Shown: in pieces, positions 12,710 to 27,364 of the stretch
Numbering within the stretch: the first letter of the stretch is position 1
Layout: each line of letters opens with the position of its first letter
Source: an uncultured Thiomicrospira sp.
Lineage (GTDB): Bacteria; Pseudomonadota; Gammaproteobacteria; CAKMZV01
Assembly: GCA_965195345.1 (NCBI GenBank)
Contig: OZ239628.1
Span: 384,001 to 448,000, forward strand
Reading direction: 5' to 3'
DNA length: 64,000 nt
Program-made: the position numbers and the translations under genes
The notes under the pieces: model-generated
The model's database searches: none
The model's input: the letters and a program-made list of their open reading frames with translations, nothing else
Told to the model about the DNA's origin: nothing

Positions 12710-13516
12710 ATGACGGTGCAAAAATTTGACATAAAGGTTTTTGAAAAGGGCGTAATGTCGAGACGCGCTGTTGAACCTGTGGCAATTGAAAGCGCAGTAA
12801 GCATCACAGTTTATGAACGAGACGAAGAACATGTTTTGGTTACTACTTTATGCACGCCGTGTGATTTAAAGCAGATGGTTTTGGGTTTTTTGTTTTCGGA
12901 AGGTTTAATCAGCAGACATTCCGATGTTAATATTACTTTTAACGATACCAACCCTTTTCAAGCGCAAGTGAGATTCGTGCAAAAGGTTCATTGGAAGCAA
13001 TCTATACGATCTTTTGTGCAACATGGCGGTTGTGGTTTATGCAGTAAAGCAGTGTTGGAAAAAATTAATAAGCCAGTGCAAGGAATGGCAAAAGAAGCGA
13101 GGCTGCAAGTATTAACTCCAAGTAATATTATTCATCTTTATCAGCAGTTATCCCTCAAGCAACCACTATTCTCTGATACTGGAGGGACACACGCTGCAGC
13201 ACTATTCGATTTTAAGGGTAAGATTCTGGGTGTTTATGAAGATGTGGGTCGACATAATGCAGTTGATAAAGCAATCGGACATGCTTTACAAAATGATTGG
13301 GAAATTCATAATAAAATTTTATGGGTGAGTGGGCGCGCAGGATTTGAATTGGTTCAAAAGGCAGTGAATGCCAATTTTGCTGTGATGTTATCAATTGGAG
13401 CGCCTACGTCGATGGCGGTCGAATTGGCAGCGGGAACGGGATTGGTGTTAATTGGGTTTTTTAAATATGGAGAGGAAGGGCTCTCTGATAGTTCGTATAA
13501 CATTTATAATGAATAA
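12710..13516 (+). CDS. fdhD: Formate dehydrogenase accessory sulfurtransferase FdhD/FdsC
   Basis: GFLFSEG, CGLC, TGGTHAAALF, EDVGRHNAVDK and SGRAGFELVQKA motifs. Confidence 0.95.
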   Translation: MTVQKFDIKVFEKGVMSRRAVEPVAIESAVSITVYERDEEHVLVTTLCTPCDLKQMVLGFLFSEGLISRHSDVNITFNDTNPFQAQVRFVQKVHWKQSIRSFVQHGGCGLCSKAVLEKINKPVQGMAKEARLQVLTPSNIIHLYQQLSLKQPLFSDTGGTHAAALFDFKGKILGVYEDVGRHNAVDKAIGHALQNDWEIHNKILWVSGRAGFELVQKAVNANFAVMLSIGAPTSMAVELAAGTGLVLIGFFKYGEEGLSDSSYNIYNE

Positions 13517-13558
13517 TTATGTAAATTAGAATATTTTTGATTTGTTTTTCAAACTAAA

Positions 13559-13939
13559 ATGAACACTATGAAATTAAGAATTTGGGGGAATAAGATTCGC
13601 TTGCGTCTTAGAACGGATGATTTTGATGCATTGCTCAGTGGTGATGGGGTTGTTGAACATATGCTTGAGATGCCAAGCGAGCAAAGTTTCATGTATCGAT
13701 TGAAGGTAAGCAATGGCGAAAAAAAGGTCGATCCAATTTTTAAAAATGGTGTGCTTGATGTAGTCGTACCGATGAAAGCATTAGAGGCTTTGCTCAATTC
13801 GCCCGAACAAGAAGGACTGCATTATCAATTTGATACAGCAGGTACGCCATTAAAGGTTGCTGTTGAGAAAGATTTTCCGTGTCAACATGACCATGTTGAT
13901 GAACCGAATGATTATTCAACGTGCTTTGACAGATTTTGA
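13559..13939 (+). CDS. Conserved hypothetical protein inside the fdh operon (DUF7009-like)
   Basis: MKLRI.GN.IRLRL N-terminus and L.V.VEKDF.C C-terminal motif, recalled from a DUF family; sits between fdhD and fdsG. Confidence 0.6.
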   Translation: MNTMKLRIWGNKIRLRLRTDDFDALLSGDGVVEHMLEMPSEQSFMYRLKVSNGEKKVDPIFKNGVLDVVVPMKALEALLNSPEQEGLHYQFDTAGTPLKVAVEKDFPCQHDHVDEPNDYSTCFDRF

Positions 13940-13962
13940 AGCCAATAGTTAGAGAGAATGCA

Positions 13963-14403
13963 ATGAGTATTGAAGCTATTATTGATAAATGGATTGACCA
14001 GTCAGGTCCTTTGTTGCCTATTTTGCTTGATGTCAAGAAAGAATATGGCTCTATCAGTGATGAGGCAATCGATGAGATAAGTAAAGGGCTAAATTTAAGC
14101 CGTGCTGAAGTATATGGAGTGGTTAGCTTTTATGAAGATTTTCATCGTGACTCCCTCGTAAATTCTAAGGCAAAGCGCATTATAAAAGTATGCACTGCTG
14201 AAGCTTGTCAAGCTCAGGGTTGTCGTACGCTGGTCAACCAGTTGGAAGAAAAACACAAGCAGAAACTCAATGAGAAAGGAACAGATATCACTATTGAGTC
14301 GGTGTATTGTCTAGGAAACTGTGCGTTAGGTCCGAGTGTGATGTTAGGAGATTGCGTTTTTGGTAGAGCAACTTTGGAGAAAGTAGATAAATGGATAGCG
14401 TAA
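13963..14403 (+). CDS. fdsG: NAD-dependent formate dehydrogenase gamma subunit (NuoE-like)
   Basis: GPLLPIL, LNLSRAEVYGVVSFY, VCTAEAC and YCLGNCALGP [2Fe-2S] ligands; ATG 13963 preferred over TTG 13936. Confidence 0.93.
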   Translation: MSIEAIIDKWIDQSGPLLPILLDVKKEYGSISDEAIDEISKGLNLSRAEVYGVVSFYEDFHRDSLVNSKAKRIIKVCTAEACQAQGCRTLVNQLEEKHKQKLNEKGTDITIESVYCLGNCALGPSVMLGDCVFGRATLEKVDKWIA

Positions 14404-15917
14404 AATTTTATATTCCATTCGACACCAGTGCAGTTTCTGTAGGAGCAAGCGCGGTGGCTGAGGCTGTGATGAAGGCTTATCCAAACACAACGATTGTACG
14501 TAATGGATCACATGGTGCTTTATGGCTTGAGCCTTTGGTTGAAGTGGAAAGCAAAGGCGTTCGATATGCTTTTGGCAATTGTTCTGTTGAATGCGTTAGC
14601 ACATTGATTCAAAATGGTGCGATTAATACGCAACATGAAAACTATCTGGGTGAGACAAAATCTCTTGATTTCTTTGCTAGTCAAAAGCGGGTAGTGTTTG
14701 ATAAGTGTGGCTGGATTGATCCTTTTGATTTCTCTCAGTGGTCAGCATATGGAGGAGGCGTTGGTTTAAGACATGCTGTTCAAATATCTGGTCAAGAAAT
14801 TATAGACAATGTTAAGTCTTCAGGACTGCGCGGACGTGGAGGCGCAGCGTTTCCAACGGGAATAAAATGGCAGACGGTACATGATGCGCAAGCAGATCAG
14901 AAATACATAGTGTGCAATGCCGATGAAGGTGATAGCGGAACGTATGCTGATCGAATGCTGATGGAAGGGGATCCACTAACACTCATAGAAGGGATGGCAA
15001 TTGCTGGCGTTGCAGTCAATGCAACAGTAGGATTTATTTACATTCGCTCAGAATATCCAATTGCCATTAAGCACTTTAAGAAAGCCATTCTGTTGGCTTA
15101 TGAGAACAACATGTTAGGGCGCGATATATTCGGTAGCGGCAAGCACTTTGATATGGAAATTCGCGAGGGGGCGGGTGCGTATATATGCGGTGAAGAAACA
15201 TCGTTATTGGAAAGCCTTGAAGGAAAACAAGGCACGATTCGTTTTAAACCACCATTGCCAGCTTTGGAAGGGATGCTGGGTAAACCAACGGTTGTTAATA
15301 ATGTCATTAGCCTTGCGAGTTGTCCGTATATATTGTCTAATCCGGGAAATTTTGAAAAGCTAGGTTGCAATCGTTCAACAGGAACGTTGACTGTACAACT
15401 ATGTGGGAATGTTAGACATGGTGGTTTGTATGAAATGGAATTTGGTTTTAATTTGAAAGATATGGTTGAGCAGATAGGTGGCGGTACGCTAACTGGCAAA
15501 CCAGTGCGTACTATGCAAGTAGGAGGCCCGCTTGGTCCGTATTTGCATCCAGACGAATTTGATACTCCGTGTGATTATGAAGAATATGCAGCGAAGAAGT
15601 TGATGATTGGACATGGAGGAGTAGTTGTTTTTGATGATGATGTTGATATGAGTGAACAAGCTAAGTTTTCTATGCAATTTTGTGCGGATGAGTCTTGTGG
15701 AAAATGCACTCCTTGTCGCATTGGGTCAACGCGTGGGGTAGAATTGATTGCTGCTATTCAAAAAGGTGAGAAAAGACAGCATTACAAATTAGTTTTAGAA
15801 GAATTGTGCGATACGATGGAAAAAACATCTTTATGCGCAATGGGGGGGCTGACACCGATGCCCGTTATGTCAGCAGTAAATAAATTCCCTACTGACTTTG
15901 GGTTTGAAAAAGATTAG
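14391..15917 (+). CDS. fdsB: NAD-dependent formate dehydrogenase beta subunit (NuoF-like)
   Basis: RNGSHG..WLEPLVEV N-terminus, SGLRGRGGAAFPTGIKW, NADEGD, GAYICGEET and ESCGKCTPCRIG motifs. Confidence 0.95.
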   Translation: MDSVKFYIPFDTSAVSVGASAVAEAVMKAYPNTTIVRNGSHGALWLEPLVEVESKGVRYAFGNCSVECVSTLIQNGAINTQHENYLGETKSLDFFASQKRVVFDKCGWIDPFDFSQWSAYGGGVGLRHAVQISGQEIIDNVKSSGLRGRGGAAFPTGIKWQTVHDAQADQKYIVCNADEGDSGTYADRMLMEGDPLTLIEGMAIAGVAVNATVGFIYIRSEYPIAIKHFKKAILLAYENNMLGRDIFGSGKHFDMEIREGAGAYICGEETSLLESLEGKQGTIRFKPPLPALEGMLGKPTVVNNVISLASCPYILSNPGNFEKLGCNRSTGTLTVQLCGNVRHGGLYEMEFGFNLKDMVEQIGGGTLTGKPVRTMQVGGPLGPYLHPDEFDTPCDYEEYAAKKLMIGHGGVVVFDDDVDMSEQAKFSMQFCADESCGKCTPCRIGSTRGVELIAAIQKGEKRQHYKLVLEELCDTMEKTSLCAMGGLTPMPVMSAVNKFPTDFGFEKD

Positions 15918-15934
15918 GAAATCTGGAGATCGCC

Positions 15935-18718
15935 ATGAAATATATTGACTTGACAGACTACGGAACGCCTGTTTCAAAAAATACTACTATGGTCAATTTG
16001 ACTATAGATGGCGTTAATGTTAGGGTTGCAGAAGGGACGAGTTTGATGCGTGCTGCAATCGAAGGGGGAATTCATATCCCTAAACTGTGCGCAACGGATT
16101 CACTTAATCCTTTTGGCTCATGTCGTTTGTGTATGGTTGAAATAGTCGGTCGTCCTAATCCAGTTGCTTCGTGTCATACGAATGTGACTGAAGGGCTAAT
16201 TATTCGCACACAAAACGAACAATTGGCGAAGTGGCGTAAGAATCTTATGGAGTTGTACATATCTGATCATCCTTTAGATTGTTTGACTTGTGCCGCTAAT
16301 GGCGATTGTGAGCTACAGGATATGGCAGGAGTGGTTGGCTTGCGTGATGTGCGTTATCCTAAAGGAGGCATAACGCATTTGGAGCAAGAAAAAGACGAAT
16401 CCAATCCTTATTTCACATTTGACCCAAGCAAGTGTATTTTGTGCTCTCGTTGTGTGCGTGCTTGCGATGAGGTGCAAGGAACATTAGCGTTAACCATAGA
16501 AAAGCGAGGATTTAACTCAAAAGTTTCAGTGGCAAATGTTGACTTTATGGCTTCTGATTGCGTTTCGTGTGGCGCATGTGTTCAAGCCTGTCCAACAGCT
16601 ACGTTGATGGAAAAAAGTGTTATTGCATTCGGTTTGGGTGAGAACAAAACAATTACCACTTGTGCTTATTGCGGAGTAGGTTGTAATTTTGTTGCACACA
16701 CTCAAGGCGAACAAGTGACGCACATGGTGCCTTATAAAGACGGGAAAGCGAACCATGGTCACTCTTGTGTTAAAGGGCGATTTGCTTGGCAATATGCGAC
16801 CCATGAAGAACGAATAACAAAACCTTTAGTCCGTGAGAGTATTCATGATGAATGGAGAGAGGTTAGTTGGGATGAAGCTTTTGAGTTTGCTGCAACAAGG
16901 TTGAAGAATATCCAAGAAAAATACGGTGTTGATTCGATTGGAGGTATTACTTCGTCGAGGTGTACTAATGAGGAAACCTATTTGGTGCAAAAACTCGTAC
17001 GAGCTACTTTTAAAAATAACAATGTTGATACTTGTGCTCGAGTTTGTCATTCACCCACAGGATATGGACTAAAACGTACTTTTGGAGCATCGGCAGGCAC
17101 TCAAAATTTTGACTCAGTACAGCATACTGATTTGATCTTTGTAGTTGGAGCCAACCCTACGGATGCGCATCCAGTGTTTGGATCTCGTATGAAACGTCGT
17201 TTGCGTGAAGGGGCGCAGTTAATAGTGCTTGATCCACGGCAAATAGATTTGGTCAAAAGTCCTCATATTAAAGCGAATGTGCACTTGCCCCTAACTCCAG
17301 GAACAAATGTTGCTGTTCTTAATGCTATCGCTCACACGATCGTTAAGGAAGGACTGCAAGATCAAGATTTTATAAGCAAACGCTGTGATTTAGACACCTT
17401 TAAAGATTGGCTAACCTTTATTCAACATGAAAAAAATGCACCTGAGACGATCGCCTCTCAATCAGGACTGGACGTAAATGACATTAAAAAAGCAGCAAGG
17501 CTGTATGCTAAAGCACCGAATGCTGCGATTTACTATGGGTTGGGAGTTACGGAGCATTCGCAAGGGTCTTCAACAGTAATGGCAATAGCTAATTTGGCAA
17601 TGTTGACAGGGAATATTGGTCGAGAAGGTGTTGGTGTTAACCCATTACGTGGACAAAATAATGTACAGGGCGCATGTGATATGGGTTCTTTCCCTCATGA
17701 GTTGCCCGGTTATCGTCACGTTGGTGATCCTAAAGTACGCGAATTATTCGAATCAGAGTGGGATGTTGAATTGTCCGCTGATCCTGGATTGCGCATTCCT
17801 AATATGTTTGATGCCGCCACTGCTGGTTGGTACAAAGGCATGTATATTCAGGGTGAAGACTTAGTGCAATCTGATCCGAACTCTCATCATGTGATAAAGG
17901 CCTTTGAAAACATGGAGTGCGTTATAGTCCATGATCTGTTTTTGAATGAAACGGCTAAATACGCACATGTTTTTTTTCCAGGAGCTTCCTTTTTGGAAAA
18001 AGATGGAACATTTACTAACGCAGAAAGGCGTGTTAATCGTGTTCGTAAAGTCATGTCACCGTTAGGTGGTATGTCAGAGTGGGAAGTAATCTGTGCTTTA
18101 GCAAAAGCAATGGGGTACTCAATGGAGTACAACCATCCTAGTGAAATCATGGATGAAATTGCGCGAACTACTCCAGGATTTGCTAATGTAAGCTATGACT
18201 TGCTTGATGAGAAAGGAAGTATTCAATGGCCTTGCAATGACGCATCACCAGAAGGGACGCCTATTATGCACCAAGAATATTTTGTGCTTGGTAAAGGACA
18301 TTTTATCAATACTGAATACGTGCCCACAAGTGAAAAAACCAATCGTAAATATCCCTTATTACTTACTACTGGACGAGTATTGCATCACTATAACGTAGGC
18401 ACACAAACGAGGCGCACGGCCAATTCAAAGTGGCAACCAGAAGACATATTAGAAATTCATCCAAGCGATGCGGAGTCAAGAGGTATTGTTGACGATATGC
18501 GCGTTGCAGTCACTTCACGCTCAGGTGAAACTTATTTGCACGTGCGCGTTTCAGAAAAAATGGAACCAGGTGTTGTTTATACAACTTTTCATTTTCCAGA
18601 AAGCAATACCAATGTTATTACTACGGATAATTCAGATTGGGCAACAAACTGTCCCGAGTACAAGGTGACGGCTGTGGAAGTTCGTCCTCATGATCAGGCT
18701 ATTCCTAAAGTTGGGTGA
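15935..18718 (+). CDS. fdsA: NAD-dependent formate dehydrogenase alpha subunit (Mo-bis-PGD, Cys ligand)
   Basis: N-terminal Fe-S motifs, TCAYCGVGC, CVKGRF, active site DTCARVCHSP, PLRGQNNVQGACD and PEYKVTAV. Confidence 0.96.
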   Translation: MKYIDLTDYGTPVSKNTTMVNLTIDGVNVRVAEGTSLMRAAIEGGIHIPKLCATDSLNPFGSCRLCMVEIVGRPNPVASCHTNVTEGLIIRTQNEQLAKWRKNLMELYISDHPLDCLTCAANGDCELQDMAGVVGLRDVRYPKGGITHLEQEKDESNPYFTFDPSKCILCSRCVRACDEVQGTLALTIEKRGFNSKVSVANVDFMASDCVSCGACVQACPTATLMEKSVIAFGLGENKTITTCAYCGVGCNFVAHTQGEQVTHMVPYKDGKANHGHSCVKGRFAWQYATHEERITKPLVRESIHDEWREVSWDEAFEFAATRLKNIQEKYGVDSIGGITSSRCTNEETYLVQKLVRATFKNNNVDTCARVCHSPTGYGLKRTFGASAGTQNFDSVQHTDLIFVVGANPTDAHPVFGSRMKRRLREGAQLIVLDPRQIDLVKSPHIKANVHLPLTPGTNVAVLNAIAHTIVKEGLQDQDFISKRCDLDTFKDWLTFIQHEKNAPETIASQSGLDVNDIKKAARLYAKAPNAAIYYGLGVTEHSQGSSTVMAIANLAMLTGNIGREGVGVNPLRGQNNVQGACDMGSFPHELPGYRHVGDPKVRELFESEWDVELSADPGLRIPNMFDAATAGWYKGMYIQGEDLVQSDPNSHHVIKAFENMECVIVHDLFLNETAKYAHVFFPGASFLEKDGTFTNAERRVNRVRKVMSPLGGMSEWEVICALAKAMGYSMEYNHPSEIMDEIARTTPGFANVSYDLLDEKGSIQWPCNDASPEGTPIMHQEYFVLGKGHFINTEYVPTSEKTNRKYPLLLTTGRVLHHYNVGTQTRRTANSKWQPEDILEIHPSDAESRGIVDDMRVAVTSRSGETYLHVRVSEKMEPGVVYTTFHFPESNTNVITTDNSDWATNCPEYKVTAVEVRPHDQAIPKVG

Positions 18719-18745
18719 ATACAGGAAACTAAAAGGTATTATTTC

Positions 18746-18958
18746 ATGAAACAATCACGATTTGACCCCGATCGCATTGTATCGCTCGCTAATCAAATAG
18801 CTGAAAATCAATTTGGTATGAGTGAGACTGAGGCAGTGAAGATGGTGGCGACGCATATTAATGCTTTTTGGAACTCCAGCATGAAACAAGTTTTACATTC
18901 GTTGGACGAAAAAAAACTACACCCATTTTGTGCAAAAGCGCTTGAAGATATTAACTGA
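18746..18958 (+). CDS. fdsD: Formate dehydrogenase delta subunit
   Basis: ANQIA...VATHINAFW..MK motif; last gene of the fds operon. Confidence 0.88.
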   Translation: MKQSRFDPDRIVSLANQIAENQFGMSETEAVKMVATHINAFWNSSMKQVLHSLDEKKLHPFCAKALEDIN

Positions 18959-19103: not shown

Positions 19104-20333
19104 ATGTTTTTTTCATGTAATAAGATAAAGAAAGATGTTTTTAAATCTTCAAAGATGCTTTTTTTGGGAGCATACTTTGTTATTTTATTGTCATCTGCTT
19201 TCATGACATTACCCGCGAATGCCGACGAACACGAACAGGCTACAGAAACCTCAACAAATACTATTCAGCCAAGAGAACAAGCAAAAAAAGAAAATCCAGA
19301 GGTGCTGCCCTCTCACTTGCCGATTAAGAATATTCAATTCACTCCCTCTAAAAAAGAAAAAATTTTCTTTCATCATAACGATGAAAGAGACGAAGAACTT
19401 AGGGTGATCATATTGCAACAATTATTTGATCCTCTATTATGGGAAAAGGCAAAAGTGAGCGCCATACAGTCAAAAATTGAATCTGCTTATATTGTTTATG
19501 ATGATTCTAAAGGGGAGCGACAACATAGCCCTGATTTTTACGATAGCTTAGAAAGCGCTCTGCTTAAAAAGATGGTTCAAACTACAGATATATCATTCAA
19601 AGGATGTGCTTACTCTTGTGTGCAGAAAAAAACAATCACCATAACACAAAGTCGCTTGATTATTAGTACGAAGAACTTAAATAGACGCATTCGAAAAGAA
19701 ATTGAATCGGGTGAAGTACAGGGCATTTTAAAATGGAGTTTCTTCTCAAATGCAGCTGGCAGTAAAGGAGGAATATCTGTTAGCCTACTCAATGCAAACA
19801 ATAAGATTGTTTGGACCGATACGATTTTTGCAGACATTAATGAGTTAATAGTAGCTGACGAAAACAAAGCGTCAGAAGGTGAAAGCCAATTAGGTATAGC
19901 ATTGATGAGTCAGAGAATTCAGTTTGAAGAAGGAACGGATCCAGTAACAGAATCAAACCAAAATGTTGTGGTGAGTTTTGGTTATAGAGAACGCATTACA
20001 CCGTTCACCAGACTTAAATATTATTTAGGGGGGCGTGTGCTGTATAGCACTGGTTTAGCAAATAACTATTTTGCCATTTCAGCGAGTGCTCGTATAGGTT
20101 ATACCATTTTTAATCTGCCCAAACGCGACGTTGATTTTTTCATAGGATTCGAGCAAGACCTCATATTAGTTCAAGGATTTAATGGCACACTTGCTGTAGA
20201 TTGGCAGCTGAGTGATGCTTTTTATTTGCGAGGGATTTATGAGCTGCCGTTGGATTCAGAACGCACAGATAATTTTGGTCAAGAGTATACCCTTAGTCCG
20301 GGTTTTTTGTTAGAAATGGGGGTTAAACTGTGA
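19104..20333 (+). CDS. Hypothetical exported protein: periplasmic alpha/beta (CsgG/FlgO-like?) domain plus C-terminal outer-membrane beta-barrel
   Basis: Signal peptide ending LPANA; about 8 amphipathic beta strands in the last ~150 aa, ending FLLEMGVKL; central SLESALL...GILKW..ISVSLLNANNKIVWTDT segment. Confidence 0.5.
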   Translation: MFFSCNKIKKDVFKSSKMLFLGAYFVILLSSAFMTLPANADEHEQATETSTNTIQPREQAKKENPEVLPSHLPIKNIQFTPSKKEKIFFHHNDERDEELRVIILQQLFDPLLWEKAKVSAIQSKIESAYIVYDDSKGERQHSPDFYDSLESALLKKMVQTTDISFKGCAYSCVQKKTITITQSRLIISTKNLNRRIRKEIESGEVQGILKWSFFSNAAGSKGGISVSLLNANNKIVWTDTIFADINELIVADENKASEGESQLGIALMSQRIQFEEGTDPVTESNQNVVVSFGYRERITPFTRLKYYLGGRVLYSTGLANNYFAISASARIGYTIFNLPKRDVDFFIGFEQDLILVQGFNGTLAVDWQLSDAFYLRGIYELPLDSERTDNFGQEYTLSPGFLLEMGVKL

Positions 20334-20899
20334 ACGGGCTTAAAATATTATTTATCATCTCTGCAGTGATTTTTTTGTCAGGCTGCAGTTCAACAGAAGA
20401 GTTACAAACTTTGGATGCGGGCAGAGCAATCAAAGAGGGAGACGGTAAGGAAAATCTACCCTCGTCATTAATTGTTGAAAATGGCGTTATTTTTTTTAGA
20501 AAAGAAAGTGGTGGTGAAAAAATCGAATTTATTTTTAATATTGGTGAAAATGAAAACATCGAGTACGAGATAGAATTTGCTCCCCCTGAGAAAGAAAAGA
20601 GCGATCATCTTCCTGCCCAAAATAGTACCTCTGTAAGTGGCGAGTCTAAAAAGCTTGCGGATCGATTATTCCTATCTGCACAAGGCTATTTTTTAGAAGG
20701 AAATTATCGTCGAGCTTTGGTTGAGGTTAATCGAGCGCTACGAGAAGACATGAAGTCTGGACTTCTTTGGGCTTTAAAGGGTTCCATACACTATAAGCTT
20801 AATGAATTTGGATTGGCACGCAATGCATGGAGTAAGTCGCAGGAATTAGACAAAGATATTACAGGCGTTCGAGAAATGTTATTAAAAATAGGGACGTAA
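20330..20899 (+). CDS. TPR-repeat lipoprotein
   Basis: Lipobox FLSGC; TPR-like helices AQGYFLEGNYRRAL..AL and WALKGSIHYKLNEFGLARNAWSKS; GTGA overlap with the upstream gene. Confidence 0.8.
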   Translation: MNGLKILFIISAVIFLSGCSSTEELQTLDAGRAIKEGDGKENLPSSLIVENGVIFFRKESGGEKIEFIFNIGENENIEYEIEFAPPEKEKSDHLPAQNSTSVSGESKKLADRLFLSAQGYFLEGNYRRALVEVNRALREDMKSGLLWALKGSIHYKLNEFGLARNAWSKSQELDKDITGVREMLLKIGT

Positions 20900-20927
20900 T
20901 TAAGAATTAATTTGTGAGTATGAAACC

Positions 20928-23111
20928 ATGAAAAGTTTTTTTGTAAAAATCATAGCAAATGTAGTCACTATTTTTGTGATTGCCGTTACGGGGGTACATG
21001 CACAAGAGATTGAACGAGCAGGGCAAGTAGATGCCATAAAGCAGAGTGTTTTTGAGCGGGATTTGGAAAATAATATTAGCAGTGCGCTCAGGTTACAGCT
21101 CGGTAGCATTCCTTTTTTGGTTCAAGTGAGTGCTGAATTGCGCTCGATAAAAACATACGCGATTGATACTGTCTCCATATATCAGCCGAGTTCTGTTGAA
21201 GCGCCTTCTCTTGAAAGTAAAAAAACAATTGTGAGACAACAGCTGCAAGAAGTTGATGCTGGTAGAACGAATCAAAACATTGATCCTGCTGACGATGGAG
21301 GCCAAGGTATTTCAAATGCTTTGCCAGGAGCCCCAATTCTTTTGACGAATAGTGACGATGGATCTGAGCAAAATCAGCCGAGAAGAAGTCAACCTATAAC
21401 TGAGGTCATTCAATCAACTGAGCCTATCAGTGAAGCGTCAGAAAGTCAACCGAGAAGTGTTGGTCGATTTGTGAATACCACCCGTGAAACGTTCATTGAA
21501 AGTCATGTGTTAATTGACAGAATTGACGTCAAGCTATGGCTTCCATCTGATTTGGAACCTAGTAGAATTCGTTTTCTCAAACACTTGGTTTCTGAAAAAG
21601 CAAGAATTAATTTAATAAGGGGCGATCAGTTTACAACTATTTTAACAAATTTTCCAGAAACTGAAAAAAAGGAAGATACCCTAACAACTAACCAGAATAG
21701 CTCAACTGAGTCTATAAATATTGATAATATTGGTCGGAGAATAGGATTAGATAGAGTAGTAAGTGAGCTGAGTCAAAACAATTGGTTACCTTGGGCGCTT
21801 GCTGGGTTACTCTTTTTATGGTTATTGTTTTTGCTTTTCCGCAAAAAAAGAACCGCGCATCACCAACCGCCGATCGCAACGTACCATCACAGCGATGTTC
21901 CATTTAACCCTCCATCATTAACGAACATCAACCCTCCTGAATCCGCATCTCTTGAAGATAAACAACAAGATCACGAACATAAACAGCGATTGAAAATTCT
22001 TAATGAAGACATAGTGAGTAATATCATGCTGCATGAAGGGTTGTTGCTGAATGCGCTAAATAACCCTAACCTTGCAATAGAAAAAGTACGATTTACGGCT
22101 TGGTTGATTAAATTGCTTGGCACAGCCGTGGTTGCAAAGTATGCATATGATCAGCTTAATGAAAGCGAATTAAAAAACGCGAATGCGTTGCAAGAAGTTA
22201 TTGAACAAAGCACATTGATAGAACAATGTGAATGGGCAGCAAAGGTGCATAGAAGCTTACGCGATAGTGAGTCGCTTTCTAATAAAAATATTTCCCAACC
22301 TTTTGATTTCTTAAATGAAATGAATGATCAGAAATTGAAACGCTTGCTAAATGAAGAGCATGTGCAGGCAAAAGCACTGATACTTTCTCAAATTGATCAA
22401 CGACGCTCGGCAGCAATCCTTGCTATGTTTTCTGCTGAGGAACAAGCAAGTATTGCCATAGCAATGGGGAAACTTACGACACTTCCAGTATCTTCATTTC
22501 ATGACATAGCTAATCAATTAGCTCGTAAGGCTCAAAGCATTCCAGAAGTAAATGAGCTTAACATTGATGGAACGGAAGCGCTAGTGCAGATGATAGAGTC
22601 CATGGATTTGGCGAATGGAACAGCGTTCCTGAATGAATTGAGAAAACAAAATCCTGATCAATATTATCGCATTAAGAAATTGTATATGGGCTTTGAGGAT
22701 ATTCCAAAAATTCCGAAGGCTATATTGAAAAACTTTTTGCGTGAAATTGAACGAGAAGAGTTGGTTACGGCACTGTACGATGAGGAAGATGCTTTTAGAG
22801 AACAGTTACTCAGTGCGCTTCCTGATCGAGCAAAGGCATTAGTTCAGCAGTTATTGAGTGAAATACAAACACCAACTGCAGCAAAGATTATGCAATCGAA
22901 AAAAATGATTAGCACCAAAGCAAGGCAGTTATTGCGAGCTAAAGTATTTGAATTACCAACAGATGAAGAGACCTTCACAGCGTCTTCAACATCTGAAGCA
23001 GGGCTACAAGAAGAGTCTATAGTTCCCTCTATAGAGGTTGAGTCAAGGCTTTCGGAAGAGTCAAACACAGGGTCAAGAAGCTCCTCAAACCTTAATAACT
23101 TAGAAAAATGA
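20928..23111 (+). CDS. FliF(RBM3/S-ring)-TM-FliG single-chain fusion; putative rotor of a non-flagellar motor
   Basis: Signal peptide (VHA|QE); FliF RBM3-like motifs (ERDLENNISSAL..LG...VQVSAEL, LPGA, IDRIDV, RGDQFTTILTNF); one TM plus RKKR; FliG-M/C motifs (PFDFL, EEHVQ, YMGFEDI, LREIE..LVTAL, DRA). Confidence 0.85.
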   Translation: MKSFFVKIIANVVTIFVIAVTGVHAQEIERAGQVDAIKQSVFERDLENNISSALRLQLGSIPFLVQVSAELRSIKTYAIDTVSIYQPSSVEAPSLESKKTIVRQQLQEVDAGRTNQNIDPADDGGQGISNALPGAPILLTNSDDGSEQNQPRRSQPITEVIQSTEPISEASESQPRSVGRFVNTTRETFIESHVLIDRIDVKLWLPSDLEPSRIRFLKHLVSEKARINLIRGDQFTTILTNFPETEKKEDTLTTNQNSSTESINIDNIGRRIGLDRVVSELSQNNWLPWALAGLLFLWLLFLLFRKKRTAHHQPPIATYHHSDVPFNPPSLTNINPPESASLEDKQQDHEHKQRLKILNEDIVSNIMLHEGLLLNALNNPNLAIEKVRFTAWLIKLLGTAVVAKYAYDQLNESELKNANALQEVIEQSTLIEQCEWAAKVHRSLRDSESLSNKNISQPFDFLNEMNDQKLKRLLNEEHVQAKALILSQIDQRRSAAILAMFSAEEQASIAIAMGKLTTLPVSSFHDIANQLARKAQSIPEVNELNIDGTEALVQMIESMDLANGTAFLNELRKQNPDQYYRIKKLYMGFEDIPKIPKAILKNFLREIEREELVTALYDEEDAFREQLLSALPDRAKALVQQLLSEIQTPTAAKIMQSKKMISTKARQLLRAKVFELPTDEETFTASSTSEAGLQEESIVPSIEVESRLSEESNTGSRSSSNLNNLEK

Positions 23112-23887
23112 AAACACTAATTAGTCGATTAATAGCAATGGCTTTGGTAGGGTACGCAGCTTACAGCATTATTGTTTTTCCAGAGCATACAGCTCTTTTT
23201 ACGCATGCAGAATCAGTGATTTTGGTATTGGGTGGTACATTCGCAGCAAGCCTGATGAGCTTTAATATTGAGACAATATTGAAGGCATTTTTAAGCTTTT
23301 TTAAAGGTCTTATTTATGCCTCAGACAATCAGTCAAAGATCAGAGAAATAAAAGAAATCATTACAATTGCAGAACGCGTTAATGAAACAAACGGATTCGG
23401 ATGTATTGATGATATGTTAGAACAAAAAAAAAAATATTCAGATTTTGTGCGATTAGGATTAGAGCTGATTTCTGCGGGTTACAGCGAAGTTGGACTTAGA
23501 GTACAGCTAACAAATTTTGCAGATGAACTAGATGAAGAAGAGCGTTTGATGGAAGACGTTTGGTTTCAATTTGCAAACTATGCTCCAGCTTTGGGAATGG
23601 TTGGAACAGTTATAGGGTTGATTCTTATGTTGGATAATCTTGATGTCAATAGTTTAAATATTGGAGCTGGACTTTCATTGGCACTGTTGACTACTTTGTA
23701 CGGTGTTTGTATAGCGAACTTTATTTTCAAACCAACTGCTCGGTTTTTAGCTGAAGAACGATTGAAAAAATCCAGAAATTTAGCACTTTATTTAGAAGCA
23801 ATGCTAATGGTACAAAAAAAAACAAGTCCAATTTTAATGAAAGATTACTTAAATAGTAGCTTGCCTATTAAATTGCAATTAAAGTAA
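23108..23887 (+). CDS. motA: MotA/PomA-family stator A subunit
   Basis: S.ILVLGGT in TM2, APALGMVGTVIGLI in TM3, ALLTTLYG..ANFIFKP in TM4; 259 aa; ATGA overlap with the FliF-FliG gene. Confidence 0.92.
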   Translation: MKTLISRLIAMALVGYAAYSIIVFPEHTALFTHAESVILVLGGTFAASLMSFNIETILKAFLSFFKGLIYASDNQSKIREIKEIITIAERVNETNGFGCIDDMLEQKKKYSDFVRLGLELISAGYSEVGLRVQLTNFADELDEEERLMEDVWFQFANYAPALGMVGTVIGLILMLDNLDVNSLNIGAGLSLALLTTLYGVCIANFIFKPTARFLAEERLKKSRNLALYLEAMLMVQKKTSPILMKDYLNSSLPIKLQLK

Positions 23888-23953
23888 TGTTAAGAATAAG
23901 CCTAAAATCAACTTCTGTGAAGATTGATTTTTCGTAACTAAGGATACGGCTTC

Positions 23954-24673
23954 ATGAATTCAGTTTTACGCAAAAAAAAGTCTATCAATAGAACAGATAA
24001 CCTTTGGTTAATAACCTATTCAGATGTTGTGACGTTACTGTTGGTTTTTTTTGTGCTAATCATCGCTTTTTCAGTCGTTGATCAATCTAAATTTGAAGTG
24101 ATTGCTGAAGCCATAAAAGCAAATAAGTTCGATGGGAAAAAGACGCTTCCTTTTCAAAAATTTGAACAAGAATTGCAAAAAATTATCGAAAAAAATGATT
24201 TAGAAGAAAAGGTTGTTGTAAATAAACAACCTCTAGGCGTTAGTATTGAACTTTCTGGTGAAAGTCTATTCCAATCTGGAGAAGCTATTTTGAATGCAAC
24301 GGGTAGCCTCGCAATAAAACAATTAGCGAAGGCTATAAAAAACATTGAATATCCTAACTATCAAGTAGAGATTGAAGGACATACCGATGATGTGCCAATA
24401 AATAATGAGAAATACTCTTCCAATTGGGAATTGTCTGTCTTTCGCGCCATTGATGTGCTTAAGCTGTTAACAGAGCAGGGAATACCCAATGATAAATTCA
24501 AAATAGCTGGTTACGGAGAAACAAAACCTAAATATTCAAATGAAACGGCTGATGGTTTACCTAATGTCGCTAACAGAGCTAAAAACAGACGAATAGAGAT
24601 TAATGTTTTTCGTAAGGAGCGGCGTTATAGGGAATCGTCAACAAAAGAGGAAAATCAAAACACAGAAAAGTAG
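23954..24673 (+). CDS. motB: MotB/PomB-family stator B subunit with OmpA-like peptidoglycan-binding domain
   Basis: WLITYSD(24)VVTLLLVFFVL TM with the catalytic Asp; IEGHTDDVPI, SNWELS..RA, GYGETKP and KNRRIEI motifs. Confidence 0.94.
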   Translation: MNSVLRKKKSINRTDNLWLITYSDVVTLLLVFFVLIIAFSVVDQSKFEVIAEAIKANKFDGKKTLPFQKFEQELQKIIEKNDLEEKVVVNKQPLGVSIELSGESLFQSGEAILNATGSLAIKQLAKAIKNIEYPNYQVEIEGHTDDVPINNEKYSSNWELSVFRAIDVLKLLTEQGIPNDKFKIAGYGETKPKYSNETADGLPNVANRAKNRRIEINVFRKERRYRESSTKEENQNTEK

Positions 24674-24733
24674 TTTTTATAATATTTTTTGATTTTTGGC
24701 ACGCATTGAGACTATTTTTAAGCAGGTTCTAAA

Positions 24734-26149
24734 ATGCAAAGAAAGGGTATGGGATTCATATTTAACCGAATAAATGCTCTTACTTTTTCTAGTATGAGAA
24801 AAAAAAATCCAATTCTACTGGTCTGCTCTTTTGTGGTGTTTCTCTCCTTCCCTATAAAAGCAACGAGCAATTTTCAACCTTCCCAATTGAGAACTTTGTT
24901 TAATCCTGCCGCTGAGAATCCATCAGCAGCAGTTATCTACAGTTACTTATTCAATGATAGTGATATCGGGTTGCAAGTATATGGAGAAGCGCAAGGACTA
25001 GTAGAAAACACCATAGATGAGAATCAACTTCTAATGGAGTTGAACGGTATTATAAATTCTAATATTGGCGTTAATTCTATTAATCAATTTGAAACACAAA
25101 TAAATAATTTCCTTAGAACTACTCAACCTATTCTTCGTGGTAATGCAAACGCAATCCTCGCTTTTCGAAAAGGATCAAATACAAAAAAAACTGCTGTCAC
25201 TCTTAGTTATGATGATAGTCTCTTGTACTATCAACAATTGCGATTTATCAATGGCGTTGATGTTGATGTGCCGGCAGTAACAGCCTTAATTGCGGGCAAC
25301 ACGACCATTGATTCTGCAGATTTTTTGAACGCTATTGATACTGATGTGGGCATTAATAATACATTGGCACGTATCAGAACGTTCAGCTTAGGATATAGCC
25401 ATCGCTACACGATTAATCCAATAATTAAATTCAGCTATGGTGTGCGTTTTAAAGCACAATCGGCATCTATTTCTTCAAACTTGGTGGACTTTCGAACAGT
25501 TATATCCACGACCAATGAGGTAGTTCAGTTAGAAAGTGCTGATATATTTGGAAATTTTGACACAGCAAACGAGCATATATATGGTAATGTTGATTTAGCT
25601 CTAACATTGCATGGAAGACAATATTTTATAAGCATATACTCACTGGATACCATACCGCAAAGGTTAGCATTACCAAGTTTTTCCGATACATGCGAGTCTG
25701 TAAATGATTGTGCTATATCAGCACTGTATCCAAATGGGAATGAGTTTTTTTATATCGACCCTAAAGTGCGTTTTGAATACAGCTATCTGTCACGACGCAA
25801 GCAATTTCGCTTTAGCTTTTTGTACGATATACTCCCTTGGAGAGATGGAAGTACTGCCGAGCGCCAACTGCTAACTATCCATACTGAAATTGCGACGACT
25901 AAGCGAAACACTAATAGACCCTATTGGGGACATCCCTCCCCTTCGATAAGGCTATCTGCTTTTATAGATGATGCTTCTTCTTTCGTGAATGATACTCTTA
26001 TTCAGACAGGGTTCAGTGCATGGTTTATAGATTTAAACTTCACATTTGGCTTTAGAAAACCAGGTATATTAGTCTCTAGACCATCTAGAATTGAGAACAG
26101 CAGGACACTTCTACGCGGCATTCAGTTGGGAGTTAACGTTGATTTTTAA
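24734..26149 (+). CDS. Predicted outer-membrane beta-barrel protein (TraF_2/FadL-like?)
   Basis: Signal peptide, NPA motif near the mature N-terminus, many alternating beta strands, C-terminal beta-signal QLGVNVDF. Confidence 0.6.
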   Translation: MQRKGMGFIFNRINALTFSSMRKKNPILLVCSFVVFLSFPIKATSNFQPSQLRTLFNPAAENPSAAVIYSYLFNDSDIGLQVYGEAQGLVENTIDENQLLMELNGIINSNIGVNSINQFETQINNFLRTTQPILRGNANAILAFRKGSNTKKTAVTLSYDDSLLYYQQLRFINGVDVDVPAVTALIAGNTTIDSADFLNAIDTDVGINNTLARIRTFSLGYSHRYTINPIIKFSYGVRFKAQSASISSNLVDFRTVISTTNEVVQLESADIFGNFDTANEHIYGNVDLALTLHGRQYFISIYSLDTIPQRLALPSFSDTCESVNDCAISALYPNGNEFFYIDPKVRFEYSYLSRRKQFRFSFLYDILPWRDGSTAERQLLTIHTEIATTKRNTNRPYWGHPSPSIRLSAFIDDASSFVNDTLIQTGFSAWFIDLNFTFGFRKPGILVSRPSRIENSRTLLRGIQLGVNVDF

Positions 26150-26163
26150 AAGCGATATTCTTA

Positions 26164-26751
26164 TTATTTTACAGAATCGATTAATTCCATTAAATTGCCT
26201 TTATGCATTCTAATTTCATCTTCAGATAAGCCGACTAATTCGTGAGGGAATACTAGCCAGTCGGTTGTTTTATGCACGTGAAAATCGGGTTCAATAACTG
26301 TTTGATTATTATTTGGTTTGTAATAAGCAGTGGCAATCTTTATTTTGGGAGTGTTTTTTCGGCAATGAAGTTTGATGTCATTTACCACCTGCTGGATACT
26401 CAAACCAGTATCAAAAACATCGTCAACGATGAGTAAAGAATCGGTATCATTAACGTTTTCAATAATATAGTGTAGGCCATGAACGCGGATATTACGTTCA
26501 CGCTCAGCAATACCAGTATAAGAAGAAGTACGTATGGCGATGTGATCGGTTTTAATGCCAAGATATTGTAGCAACTCCTGTACGGCAATACCGACGGGTG
26601 TTCCTCCACGCCATATTCCGACAATGTAGTTTGGGACGAAGTTGCTTTTGTGGATTTCAATGGCTAGTTGGTAAGAAACATCAAGCAATTCTTGGCTGCT
26701 TAAGTATACTTTAGGGACGGTTTCCTTGTTGTCTGGGTGGTTAGTTGACAT
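26164..26751 (-). CDS. Type I phosphoribosyltransferase (purine salvage-like)
   Basis: GIWRGG, PRPP loop LIVDDVFDTG and WLVFPHE; ATG 26751 with a GGAG RBS. Confidence 0.88.
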   Translation of the reverse strand: MSTNHPDNKETVPKVYLSSQELLDVSYQLAIEIHKSNFVPNYIVGIWRGGTPVGIAVQELLQYLGIKTDHIAIRTSSYTGIAERERNIRVHGLHYIIENVNDTDSLLIVDDVFDTGLSIQQVVNDIKLHCRKNTPKIKIATAYYKPNNNQTVIEPDFHVHKTTDWLVFPHELVGLSEDEIRMHKGNLMELIDSVK

Positions 26752-26752
26752 A

Positions 26753-27364
26753 TTACTCCATGTTTTTTTTGTGCTGATTGTAAACAATAAGGCTATGAAA
26801 AATAATTTGGGCAAGTAAAGAAGTTATGATTTGTTGAGTAAAAGCAGAGATGATGCAAAATATAAGTCCACCGATTGCCGCACTCAACCATTCTTTGCTT
26901 GGGCAGAAACGCCAAAGAGACCAAGCTAAAGTACTGACTATGATGACTTTCCAAGAGGGCAGTTCATAGAACCAATTAAAGATGCTTGCACGAAATAGTA
27001 ATTCCTCACCAAGAGGAATTAAGGCAACAAATACAAAAATTGCGATAGGGTTTTTACCGCCACAAAAAACAGGTAACTTGAAAAAGTGAAATGAAAGCAT
27101 GAACAAAACCGCACCCAAGAAAATACCCAGCAGTAATGCTAATGGCATGCTCGAAGTGAATAAGTAATCTTCAAAGTCAAATACAAAGTCTTCGCGTGTG
27201 AAAAACCATGCAAAGTAAAACCCAATCAAAATGACGAAGCGCAAGCGCATGATAGAAACGGATAGAAGATCGCTTTTTTTACTAATTTTAGCCAACAAAA
27301 ATATTGCTAATATAAGCATTCCAGGTGTAAAAAGCCAAATTAGATTAAGAATTGTTTCGGTCAT
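26753..27364 (-). CDS. CPBP (CAAX/Abi) family intramembrane protease-like protein, partly degenerate
   Basis: Multi-TM protein with PLGEELLFR motif 1; later His/Asn motifs are altered. Confidence 0.7.
   Translation of the reverse strand: MTETILNLIWLFTPGMLILAIFLLAKISKKSDLLSVSIMRLRFVILIGFYFAWFFTREDFVFDFEDYLFTSSMPLALLLGIFLGAVLFMLSFHFFKLPVFCGGKNPIAIFVFVALIPLGEELLFRASIFNWFYELPSWKVIIVSTLAWSLWRFCPSKEWLSAAIGGLIFCIISAFTQQIITSLLAQIIFHSLIVYNQHKKNME

Follow-up and report, generated by a model that had tools for sequence, protein, structure and literature searches.

The torque-generating core of the flagellum consists of FliF, FliG and the stator proteins MotAB or PomAB. Here we describe a locus of six co-directional genes, g1 to g6, at positions 19104-26149 of a 64,000-nucleotide stretch of DNA (the window) from an uncultured Thiomicrospira sp. 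(GCA_965195345.1, OZ239628.1), whose genome, G000, is a single closed contig of 1,920,693 bp and 99.71% complete. Our analysis supports the motor encoded by g3-g5 as a variant of the flagellar rotor-stator that is used outside the flagellum, and partly supports a trans-envelope unit of all six genes. The predicted products of g3-g5 show the same folds and domain order as the flagellar core, i.e., the third ring-building motif (RBM3) and beta-collar of FliF, its second transmembrane helix (TM2) and the N, M and C domains of FliG. The channel prolines of MotA, the plug, Asp and OmpA-like anchor of MotB, an Arg of the R281 type and an acidic MotA loop residue are also found in the locus. Whereas FliF and FliG are separate proteins in the flagellum, they form one polypeptide in g3, which lacks RBM1 and RBM2 and has not kept the EHPQ motif or most of the torque-helix charges. 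Furthermore, a flagellar system includes an export gate, FliM/N, a rod, a hook and a filament, for which profile searches found no genes in G000; the partners encoded in the locus are instead a tetratricopeptide repeat (TPR) lipoprotein, g2, and a putative outer membrane (OM) barrel protein, g1.

The nearest precedent is a natural FliF-FliG fusion of about 330 amino acids in the Chlamydiaceae, bacteria regarded as non-flagellated, in which a shortened FliF is likewise joined to FliG-like sequence (Bergeron 2016, PMC4768692). According to the consulted sections of that paper, RBM2 and a single RBM-like element are retained in the chlamydial protein, the SpoIIIAG-like (RBM3) domain is missing, and FliG is represented by a FliG-M-like region only; FliF, FliL and FlhA are given as the only flagellar genes, and the fusion is proposed to work with the injectisome (PMC4768692). 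Judged by this description, g3 is set apart by its RBM3/collar and complete FliG, and its locus by the absence of FlhA and the linkage to MotAB. In addition, the consulted parts of three further papers report that engineered FliF-FliG fusions of Salmonella and Vibrio assemble MS-ring-type rings (PMC6079021, PMC10941966, PMC11481574). Since such covalent chains assemble into rings, a natural fused rotor is plausible, but the engineered proteins are described there as full-length laboratory constructs within a flagellar system, whereas g3 is natural, shortened and found without a flagellum.

MotA/MotB-family units are likewise coupled to envelope partners in ExbBD-TonB, TolQR-TolA-Pal, AglRQS, GldLM and ZorAB, a feature matched here by the TolB-N-like domain of g1 and the lipoprotein g2. 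To our knowledge, none of ExbBD, TolQR, AglRQS, GldLM and ZorAB uses a FliG/FliF ring. In Vibrio, the T-ring protein MotX serves as a Sel1-repeat periplasmic stator scaffold. TPR/Sel1-type proteins similarly lie beside stator-rotor genes in our loci (g2, a Sel1 and SPOR protein in genome G071, and a Sel1 protein next to a second FliG_M protein of G000), although g2 differs from MotX in being a lipoprotein with a short TPR domain only. Unlike ZorA, g4 lacks the ZorA-specific tail. The plug, linker and OmpA-like anchor are listed as B-subunit features of the flagellar clade in the consulted part of a recent classification of MotAB homologs (mBio 2025, PMC12505986), where B subunits of the Exb/Tol/Agl clade are described as lacking the plug and OmpA-like anchor, both of which are present in g5.

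Our literature searches revealed no publication in which a FliF-FliG fusion is reported next to MotAB in bacteria without a flagellum. The sections of PMC12505986 that were covered make no mention of such loci; its supplementary trees, which may contain such stators, lie outside these sections. An initial interpretation of this DNA made from the sequence alone (the sequence-only reading) had named no characterised system with this architecture, which agrees with our searches but had missed the chlamydial precedent.

Proposed rotor and stator proteins encoded by g3, g4 and g5

The g3 gene (20928-23111, + strand) encodes the proposed rotor subunit, a FliF-FliG fusion of 727 amino acids. FliG_M (E 6.2e-12) and FliG_C (E 9.8e-17) match it above the Pfam cut-offs. 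For comparisons at the family level, we used an alignment of 40 long-form members (A1) as a profile. Aligned to 24 canonical FliG sequences with hhalign, A1 reached 99.9% probability (E 5.5e-31) and covered FliG positions 6-327 of 336, showing that all three FliG domains (N, M and C) are present; they occupy g3 residues 383-677 (22074-22958, +). FliG_C was found by Pfam in 40/40 family members. Against the NCBIfam fliG equivalog model, g3 scores under the cut-off (75 vs 226.7 bits).

The N-terminal half of g3 comprises a hydrophobic leader, about 260 periplasmic residues and a single transmembrane helix at residues 287-305 (21786-21842, +), as judged from a hydrophobicity scan and the structural model, and the helix is followed by RKKR. 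Four kinds of comparison relate this half to FliF. The A1 profile matches the open reading frames (ORFs) directly upstream of canonical fliG in flagellated genomes, i.e., fliF (E ~1e-11 to 1e-17), and Pfam YscJ_FliF_C is found in 9/40 family members, g3 itself not among them. Alignment of A1 with nine FliF sequences (hhalign, 97.2%, E 3.5e-11) places g3 193-305 on FliF 391-494 of 586, including a common RGD motif and TM2, with which helix 287-305 aligns. The AlphaFold2 (AF2) model of g3 has a mean predicted local distance difference test (pLDDT) value of 77.4, with the 10-residue blocks covering 31-80 and 191-240 at 95-98, and contains the same helix 287-305. In the model, the periplasmic part is composed of a beta-alpha-beta unit, long hairpin arms and an alpha-beta unit, corresponding to a single RBM-type domain. 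A Foldseek search with this model returned FliG at ranks 1-13, including full-length FliG (e.g., 8wiw_3, E 6.8e-11, 309 columns). FliF follows at ranks 14-31, and all entries from rank 15 to rank 31 represent the MS-ring, the S-ring or the RBM3-collar (E-values between 4.5e-5 and 3.9e-4, TM-score ~0.5). Pfam YscJ_FliF, the SctJ-like model of RBM1/RBM2, has no match in g3 or elsewhere in G000.

On the basis of these profile matches, the YscJ_FliF_C members, the hhalign alignment and the AF2/Foldseek results, together with the missing RBM1/2 match, g3 is classified by sequence and model as a FliF of which only the S-ring/collar domain is left and which continues into an entire FliG. The RBM3 and beta-collar are assigned to residues 25-245 (21000-21662, +), interrupted by a disordered loop at 93-176. 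The sequence-only reading had recognised a FliF-type ring part and a FliG torque domain in the same chain. The latter is borne out; the former stands for RBM3/collar but not for RBM1/2. A free FliF C-terminal tail that binds FliG-N is missing from g3, where a covalent link takes its place: TM2 at 287-305 is followed by a helix at 339-368, and FliG begins at 383.

The most conserved periplasmic motifs of the family are LPG.P (g3 132-136, ~21321-21335) and RGD (231-233, ~21618-21626). LPG.P sits in the disordered collar loop and RGD ahead of the transmembrane helix, in parallel to 'GVPGALSN' and 'RGD' of the canonical FliF alignment. In the FliG half, the FliM-binding EHPQR motif reads E-H-V-Q, and among the 40 long forms only its Glu is kept (95%); the GG linker reads DG.

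The two genes that follow encode, by sequence, a complete stator of flagellar type, as the sequence-only reading had claimed. The product of g4 (23108-23887, +; 259 amino acids) matches Pfam MotA_ExbB (E 2.4e-17), and its best NCBIfam model is PomA (E 3.3e-33, full-length alignment). In line with the MotA/PomA type, which has four transmembrane helices, channel prolines and a large charged cytoplasmic loop, all six fusion-linked MotAs share the channel residues Pro160 and Pro209 as well as the glycines. The product of g5 (23954-24673, +; 239 amino acids) is a MotB with a plug, a transmembrane helix and an OmpA-like peptidoglycan anchor (MotB_plug E 2.3e-15, OmpA E 3.4e-19), and its best NCBIfam model is MotD/MotB (E 1.4e-48), below the cut-off (166 vs 283 bits). 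Asp24 was read from the translation, and the transmembrane Asp is kept in 6/6 fusion-linked MotBs. In a tree of 32 MotA homologs with a TolQ-like outgroup, in which the comparison sequences are not each confirmed as working flagellar stators, the six fusion-linked MotAs form one group (ultrafast bootstrap 74/SH-aLRT 92).

The residues through which FliG and MotA would meet appear to be partly kept on both sides. In E. coli FliG, the charged torque-helix residues R281, D288 and D289 face MotA, according to the consulted part of PMC12505986; we mapped this numbering tentatively via the alignment to canonical FliG sequences. The equivalent of R281 is R634 in g3, which is positive in 90% of the 40 long forms, and the acidic residue of the MotA cytoplasmic loop is kept in 6/6 fusion-linked MotAs. 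The retained pairing of R634 with the acidic loop, together with the fact that both members of the other pairing are lost in G000 as well as in the related genome G004, would fit a co-evolving interface.

Putative envelope partners and recurrence of the module

The g2 gene (20330-20899, +) encodes a lipoprotein of 189 amino acids, in which a linker of ~90 residues leads to a TPR domain at the C terminus (Pfam TPR_2, E 2.5e-6). It has a lipobox, LSGC, with Cys19 and a Ser at +2, matches LPAM_1 and is probably tethered to the outer membrane. A complex prediction of g2 with the periplasmic part of g3 scored 0.12. The product of g1 (19104-20333, +; 409 amino acids) has no Pfam or NCBIfam match. 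Its AF2 model, built from a 5-sequence alignment, is of moderate confidence (mean pLDDT 63.7) and predicts, after a signal sequence, a disordered linker (~28-92), a TolB-N/LpoB-type alpha/beta domain (~93-250) and a small C-terminal OM barrel (~260-408). Foldseek matched this model to the 8-stranded barrels Ail, OmpW, the transmembrane domain of OmpA, and OmpX (probability 1.00, TM-score ~0.5), as well as to TolB and the LpoB C-domain. With moderate confidence, g1 can thus be described as an OM barrel protein with a TolB-N/LpoB-like domain. By sequence, neither g1 nor g2 appears to belong to a flagellar family.

The sixth gene, g6 (24734-26149, +; 471 amino acids), has no match by Pfam, NCBIfam or PDB sequence. 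A language model placed it near the TraF_2, PorP_SprF and DUF5723 barrel clusters (0.95-0.97), which we take as a lead only. These look-alikes, an N-terminal hydrophobic segment (signal sequence) and a C-terminal ...VNVDF, ending in Phe, make g6 a probable OM beta-barrel. The two OM barrels of the sequence-only reading thus differ in their footing: a moderate-confidence model and fold matches for g1, and look-alikes, signal sequence and terminal Phe for g6.

We compared seven loci in which a TPR gene is linked to the fusion gene, from the six genomes G000, G004, G033, G071, G130 and G301 and from the metagenome contig L088. G004, which belongs to the same family but another genus, carries all six genes in the same order in a different genomic context, with 34-57% identity to G000 (g5 57%, g4 49%, g2 43%, g3 42%, g1 35%, g6 34%). 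The TPR gene lies directly upstream of the fusion gene in 7/7 loci, and its product has a lipobox in 6/7. MotAB is present in 7/7 and adjacent to the fusion in 6/7; in G130 the MotA-MotB pair lies elsewhere, while G033, G071, G301 and L088 share the arrangement of a TPR gene directly upstream of the fusion and an adjacent MotAB. An ORF of 350-410 amino acids, assigned to the g1 family by a shallow match, precedes the TPR gene in 5/7 loci. The recurring unit is g1-g5 (OM barrel protein, TPR lipoprotein, fusion and MotAB), and it occurs in distant lineages. The word-based homolog search with g6 found only g6 itself, and the sole ortholog found is that of G004 (34%), which makes g6 a lineage-restricted gene outside the widely conserved module. 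The six-gene set, whose recurrence in non-flagellated genomes the sequence-only reading had put forward as a check, is thus not itself the conserved unit, and the co-occurrence of barrel and TPR genes with the motor holds for the TPR family and, on a shallow match, for most loci in the case of the g1 family.

To find out whether these proteins could serve a flagellum encoded elsewhere, we searched the whole of G000. FHIPEP (FlhA), YscJ_FliF, FliP, Flg_bb_rod and Flagellin_N gave no match in profile searches that did not include che genes, and neither did FliMN_C, the FliM family itself not being part of the search; control genomes scored as expected. The absence of flagellar genes that had been noted for the 64-kb window thus extends to the whole closed genome. 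FliG_C matches only g3 in G000, and MotA_ExbB matches g4, a TolQ/ExbB-type gene and one weak site. Judged from these profiles, there appears to be no flagellum in G000 for g3-g5 to serve. FHIPEP was likewise not matched in four of the other carrier genomes, G004, G033, G130 and G301 (93% complete and fragmented), so that 5/6 carriers lack a match, whereas G071 carries the module together with FHIPEP and a canonical FliG. The module hence occurs mostly without a flagellum but can coexist with one.

The G004 locus also shows how fast the motor genes diverge. Twelve neighbouring ORFs of this locus with a clear G000 match are 42-73% identical, compared with 42-57% for g2-g5. This neighbour-like divergence, the intact ORFs and the kept key residues suggest that the motor genes are not decaying, so that a relic under relaxed selection, which the sequence-only reading had named as a possible objection, appears unlikely.

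Word-based homolog searches returned almost nothing for g3 (2 matches) or for the A1 profile, and a related-locus scan of genome contigs with g3 or the family member P0024 found none, while a scan of metagenomes with the member P0031 found one locus. An exhaustive search yielded 2227 proteins at E<=1e-3, of which 289 reached E<=1e-10 and 31 reached E<=1e-30, totals that include canonical FliG. Among the best 150 of the 2227, 122 are at least 500 amino acids long (long forms), and in 119 of those 122 a hydrophobic segment begins between residues 150 and 420. While the fusion family is thus large in metagenomes, long forms are seldom encountered in representative genomes, with 6/300 scored genomes of the class (including G000) and 0/400 others in a phylum-wide sample. 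The sources of family members include metagenome-assembled genomes of Gammaproteobacteria, Saccharospirillaceae, Pseudomonadota and 'Deltaproteobacteria', and one cultured marine Vibrio isolate, to which P0024 belongs. In the databases they are named 'hypothetical', 'FliG C-terminal domain-containing protein' or 'flagellar motor switch protein FliG', and annotations of this kind can mislead predictions of motility from genomes.

Proposed mechanism and competing explanations

Starting from the domain homologies, the linkage of the genes across lineages, the absence of flagellar genes and the retention of key residues, we consider it fairly probable that g1-g5 encode a flagellum-independent rotor-stator machine that is built from flagellar motor parts and has its output at the envelope. 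Numerous g3 subunits would assemble into an inner-membrane ring, with a FliF-type S-ring and beta-collar on the periplasmic side and a covalently attached FliG ring on the cytoplasmic side. Such a rotor would do without RBM1/RBM2, the parts of FliF that serve the flagellar export gate, and its FliG would carry an unconserved FliM-binding motif. MotA/MotB units (g4/g5) would be fixed to peptidoglycan via the OmpA-like domain and gated by the plug. Ions passing the Asp24 channel would cause the stator to push on the C-terminal domain of FliG and thereby to turn or step the ring, and the co-conserved proteins g2 and g1 would receive the resulting work in the periplasm. The TPR domain of g2 could hold the conserved disordered loop of the ring or, alternatively, scaffold the stator as MotX does in Vibrio. 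In this scheme, we infer the assembly of the ring, its rotation, the coupling ion, the contacts with g1 and g2 and the envelope or surface output.

A more far-reaching version is that g1-g5 represent an unrecognised class of ion-driven rotary machine, in which a self-contained FliF/FliG ring is turned by MotAB without export apparatus, axle or filament and works on an OM complex. The class would be widespread in uncultured bacteria and would provide the first case of the FliG-MotA torque interface at work outside the flagellum. It would have arisen by reduction of the flagellar motor or, alternatively, would serve as a living model of a rotor-stator stage that preceded the flagellum. We regard this version as plausible while stopping just short of calling it probable. 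The torque-generating flagellar core is represented in all its parts, and the parts that make a flagellum are absent. Should the ring turn, the FliG-MotA interface would have a role outside motility and the 5:2 motor family would gain a new class of output. The locus also bears on flagellar evolution, since it would provide a minimal rotor-stator pair of natural origin that uncouples rotation from type III export, and a rotor of one protein combined with a stator of two would be a simple object for structural work and single-molecule experiments.

Several observations weigh against a rotary machine of this kind. The acidic torque-helix positions (E. coli D288, D289) are Q641/L642 in g3, and these two positions are acidic in 28% and 57% of the family compared with 100% of canonical FliG. 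Two further canonical charged FliG positions are not kept in g3 either, and the flagellar-invariant MotA Arg is replaced by N92 in g4 and kept in 3/6 fusion-linked MotAs. Because of Q641/L642, the two further lost charges and N92, the classical electrostatic interface is only half present in G000. Covariation between MotA and FliG over the six loci, which are kin, is weak and only suggestive, with four loci that fit, one that contradicts and one that is ambiguous. The score of g4 lies far under the PomA equivalog cut-off (115 vs 341 bits), and the root of the MotA tree is unreliable due to a long outgroup branch. Ring formation by g3 is inferred from the homology of a monomer model. With respect to the envelope partners, the alignments that relate g1 to its counterparts in other loci are shallow (hhalign, 84.9%, E 6.4e-6, and a common Cys pair between g1 with its G004 ortholog and the position-1 ORFs of G071, G301 and L088), and g6 is not co-conserved, being found in 2/7 loci only (G000 and G004). 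Finally, the sister species G001 and G002 lack the g1-g6 locus but encode a divergent long-form paralog of 771-774 amino acids that is 26-27% identical to g3 (BLASTP) and followed by a KAP-family NTPase (locus L019 of G001 and L018:8861-12569 of G002). Since no MotA was found in G001/G002 with g4 as query, a FliF-FliG fusion can persist without this stator.

The partial loss of torque-helix charges and the lack of a rod or axle for the rotor to turn would also fit a non-rotary envelope system that uses the proton motive force. There, the FliF-FliG ring or smaller oligomers would act as a fixed docking platform that unplugs MotAB, while the stator does Tol-Pal/Ton-like work or senses the ion motive force via g2 and the TolB-N-like domain of g1; indeed, a TolB-N/LpoB-type domain on an OM barrel together with a lipoprotein recalls the Tol-Pal and LpoB systems. 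However, with its plug and OmpA-like anchor the stator belongs to the flagellar rather than the compact Exb/Tol type, a complete FliG is kept including the C-terminal domain that is present in every one of the 40 members, and the RBM3/collar fold builds rings in every solved relative that was matched. We therefore judge a non-rotary system to be unlikely. Far less credible is an evolutionary relic, i.e., the last remains of a flagellum that was lost, which persist by chance or are on their way to loss and have no present function. Such a relic would suit a small, non-flagellated genome, the slightly low GC content of the locus and sister species that lack it, one of them with an interrupted FliG-like ORF. 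Yet all six ORFs are intact, with the Asp, prolines, plug and anchor kept, and between the two genera the motor proteins diverge no faster than neighbouring genes. In addition, the fusion architecture, with RBM1/2 lost and the FliM-binding motif unconserved, itself defines a conserved family (119 of the best 150), the same gene order is found in distant lineages and on a metagenome contig, and in G071 the module coexists with flagellar FlhA and a canonical FliG. Due to the intact ORFs, the retained functional residues, the neighbour-like divergence and the conserved family, we rate a relic as very improbable.

We also considered a Zorya-like anti-phage defence, where perturbation of the envelope would be sensed by a unit resembling MotAB and signalled inward. 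Zorya uses MotAB homologs, g5 matches ZorB models (E 5.6e-23), and the KAP NTPase next to the paralogous fusion of G002 matches the candidate defence family PDC-S20 (E 4.7e-92). However, the ZorB matches are what any MotB gives, and g4 matches ZorA only at E 6.7e-4 and only over residues 152-224, the channel helices; with 259 amino acids, it has no counterpart of the long tail in the ZorA model, which spans 545 positions. No PADLOC match was obtained for g1, g2, g3 or g6, the locus contains no nuclease or helicase effector, and the divergence of the G004 locus equals that of neighbouring housekeeping genes. With a ZorA of the wrong length and the effectors absent, we rejected a role in defence, to which we assign a very low probability.

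Genomic setting and additional FliG-like loci

The flagellum-independent rotor-stator machine that we favour is encoded by tightly packed genes. All six ORFs of 19104-26149 are intact and lie on the + strand (19104-20333, 20330-20899, 20928-23111, 23108-23887, 23954-24673 and 24734-26149), with 4-bp overlaps of g1/g2 at 20330 and of g3/g4 at 23108 and intergenic gaps of 28, 66 and 60 bp, as originally reported. This packing suggests that the six genes form an operon. In a scan of the locus, promoter-like sites (24 vs 22.6 expected) and terminator-like sites (5 vs 5.3 expected) occurred at chance level. The AT bias that had been noticed relative to the flanks is real but modest, since the GC content of 0.373, compared with a genome mean of 0.398, corresponds to the 5.5th percentile of 7-kb windows.

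The flanking genes agree with their first assignment. Upstream lies FdsD (18746-18958; Pfam E 2.2e-12), the end of the fds formate-dehydrogenase operon, and downstream a phosphoribosyltransferase (PRTase) gene (26164-26814, - strand). The PRTase ORF as listed, with a TTG start at 26814, overlaps the ORF of an Rce1-like CAAX protease (26753-27364, - strand) by 62 bp, and the true PRTase start is probably further downstream than 26814. The fds operon (window 12710-18958) is kept in the sister species G001 and G002 with 54-82% identity, and synteny stops right after it, where the motor locus starts in G000. As the genes downstream of the fds operon differ, no clean empty insertion site can be defined in G001/G002.

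G002 also contains an interrupted FliG-like frame (C1:583021-583734, - strand) with one or two stops within the match, in an open frame of ~650-680 amino acids. A relaxed tblastn search around it with the locus proteins gave nothing else, and this frame may be a decaying copy. In G000, a second membrane protein with the topology of g3 is encoded outside the window at L089:3916-5844 (- strand; C1 ~1257915-1259843). It has a leader, ~300 periplasmic residues, a transmembrane helix at 323-341 and a cytoplasmic FliG_M domain (E 2e-12), with no FliG_C match, and adjoins a gene for a secreted Sel1-repeat (TPR-like) protein at L089:5863-7341 (- strand). The two may constitute a second, more divergent pair of TPR and FliG-like proteins without a stator of its own.

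Additional genes accompany the module in some of the other carriers. In G071, a protein of 523 amino acids with Sel1 repeats and a peptidoglycan-binding SPOR domain (L052:12974-14545, - strand) is encoded directly upstream of the fusion-linked motA, and a partial relative of it is found near the G301 locus. In G033, motB is directly followed by a set of MoxR AAA+, DUF58, DUF4381 and VWA genes (L020:11829-15372), which we take to resemble a Bat-like operon, and then by a gene for a type IV pilin, to which an ORF close to the G301 locus is related. This linkage may be due to chance.

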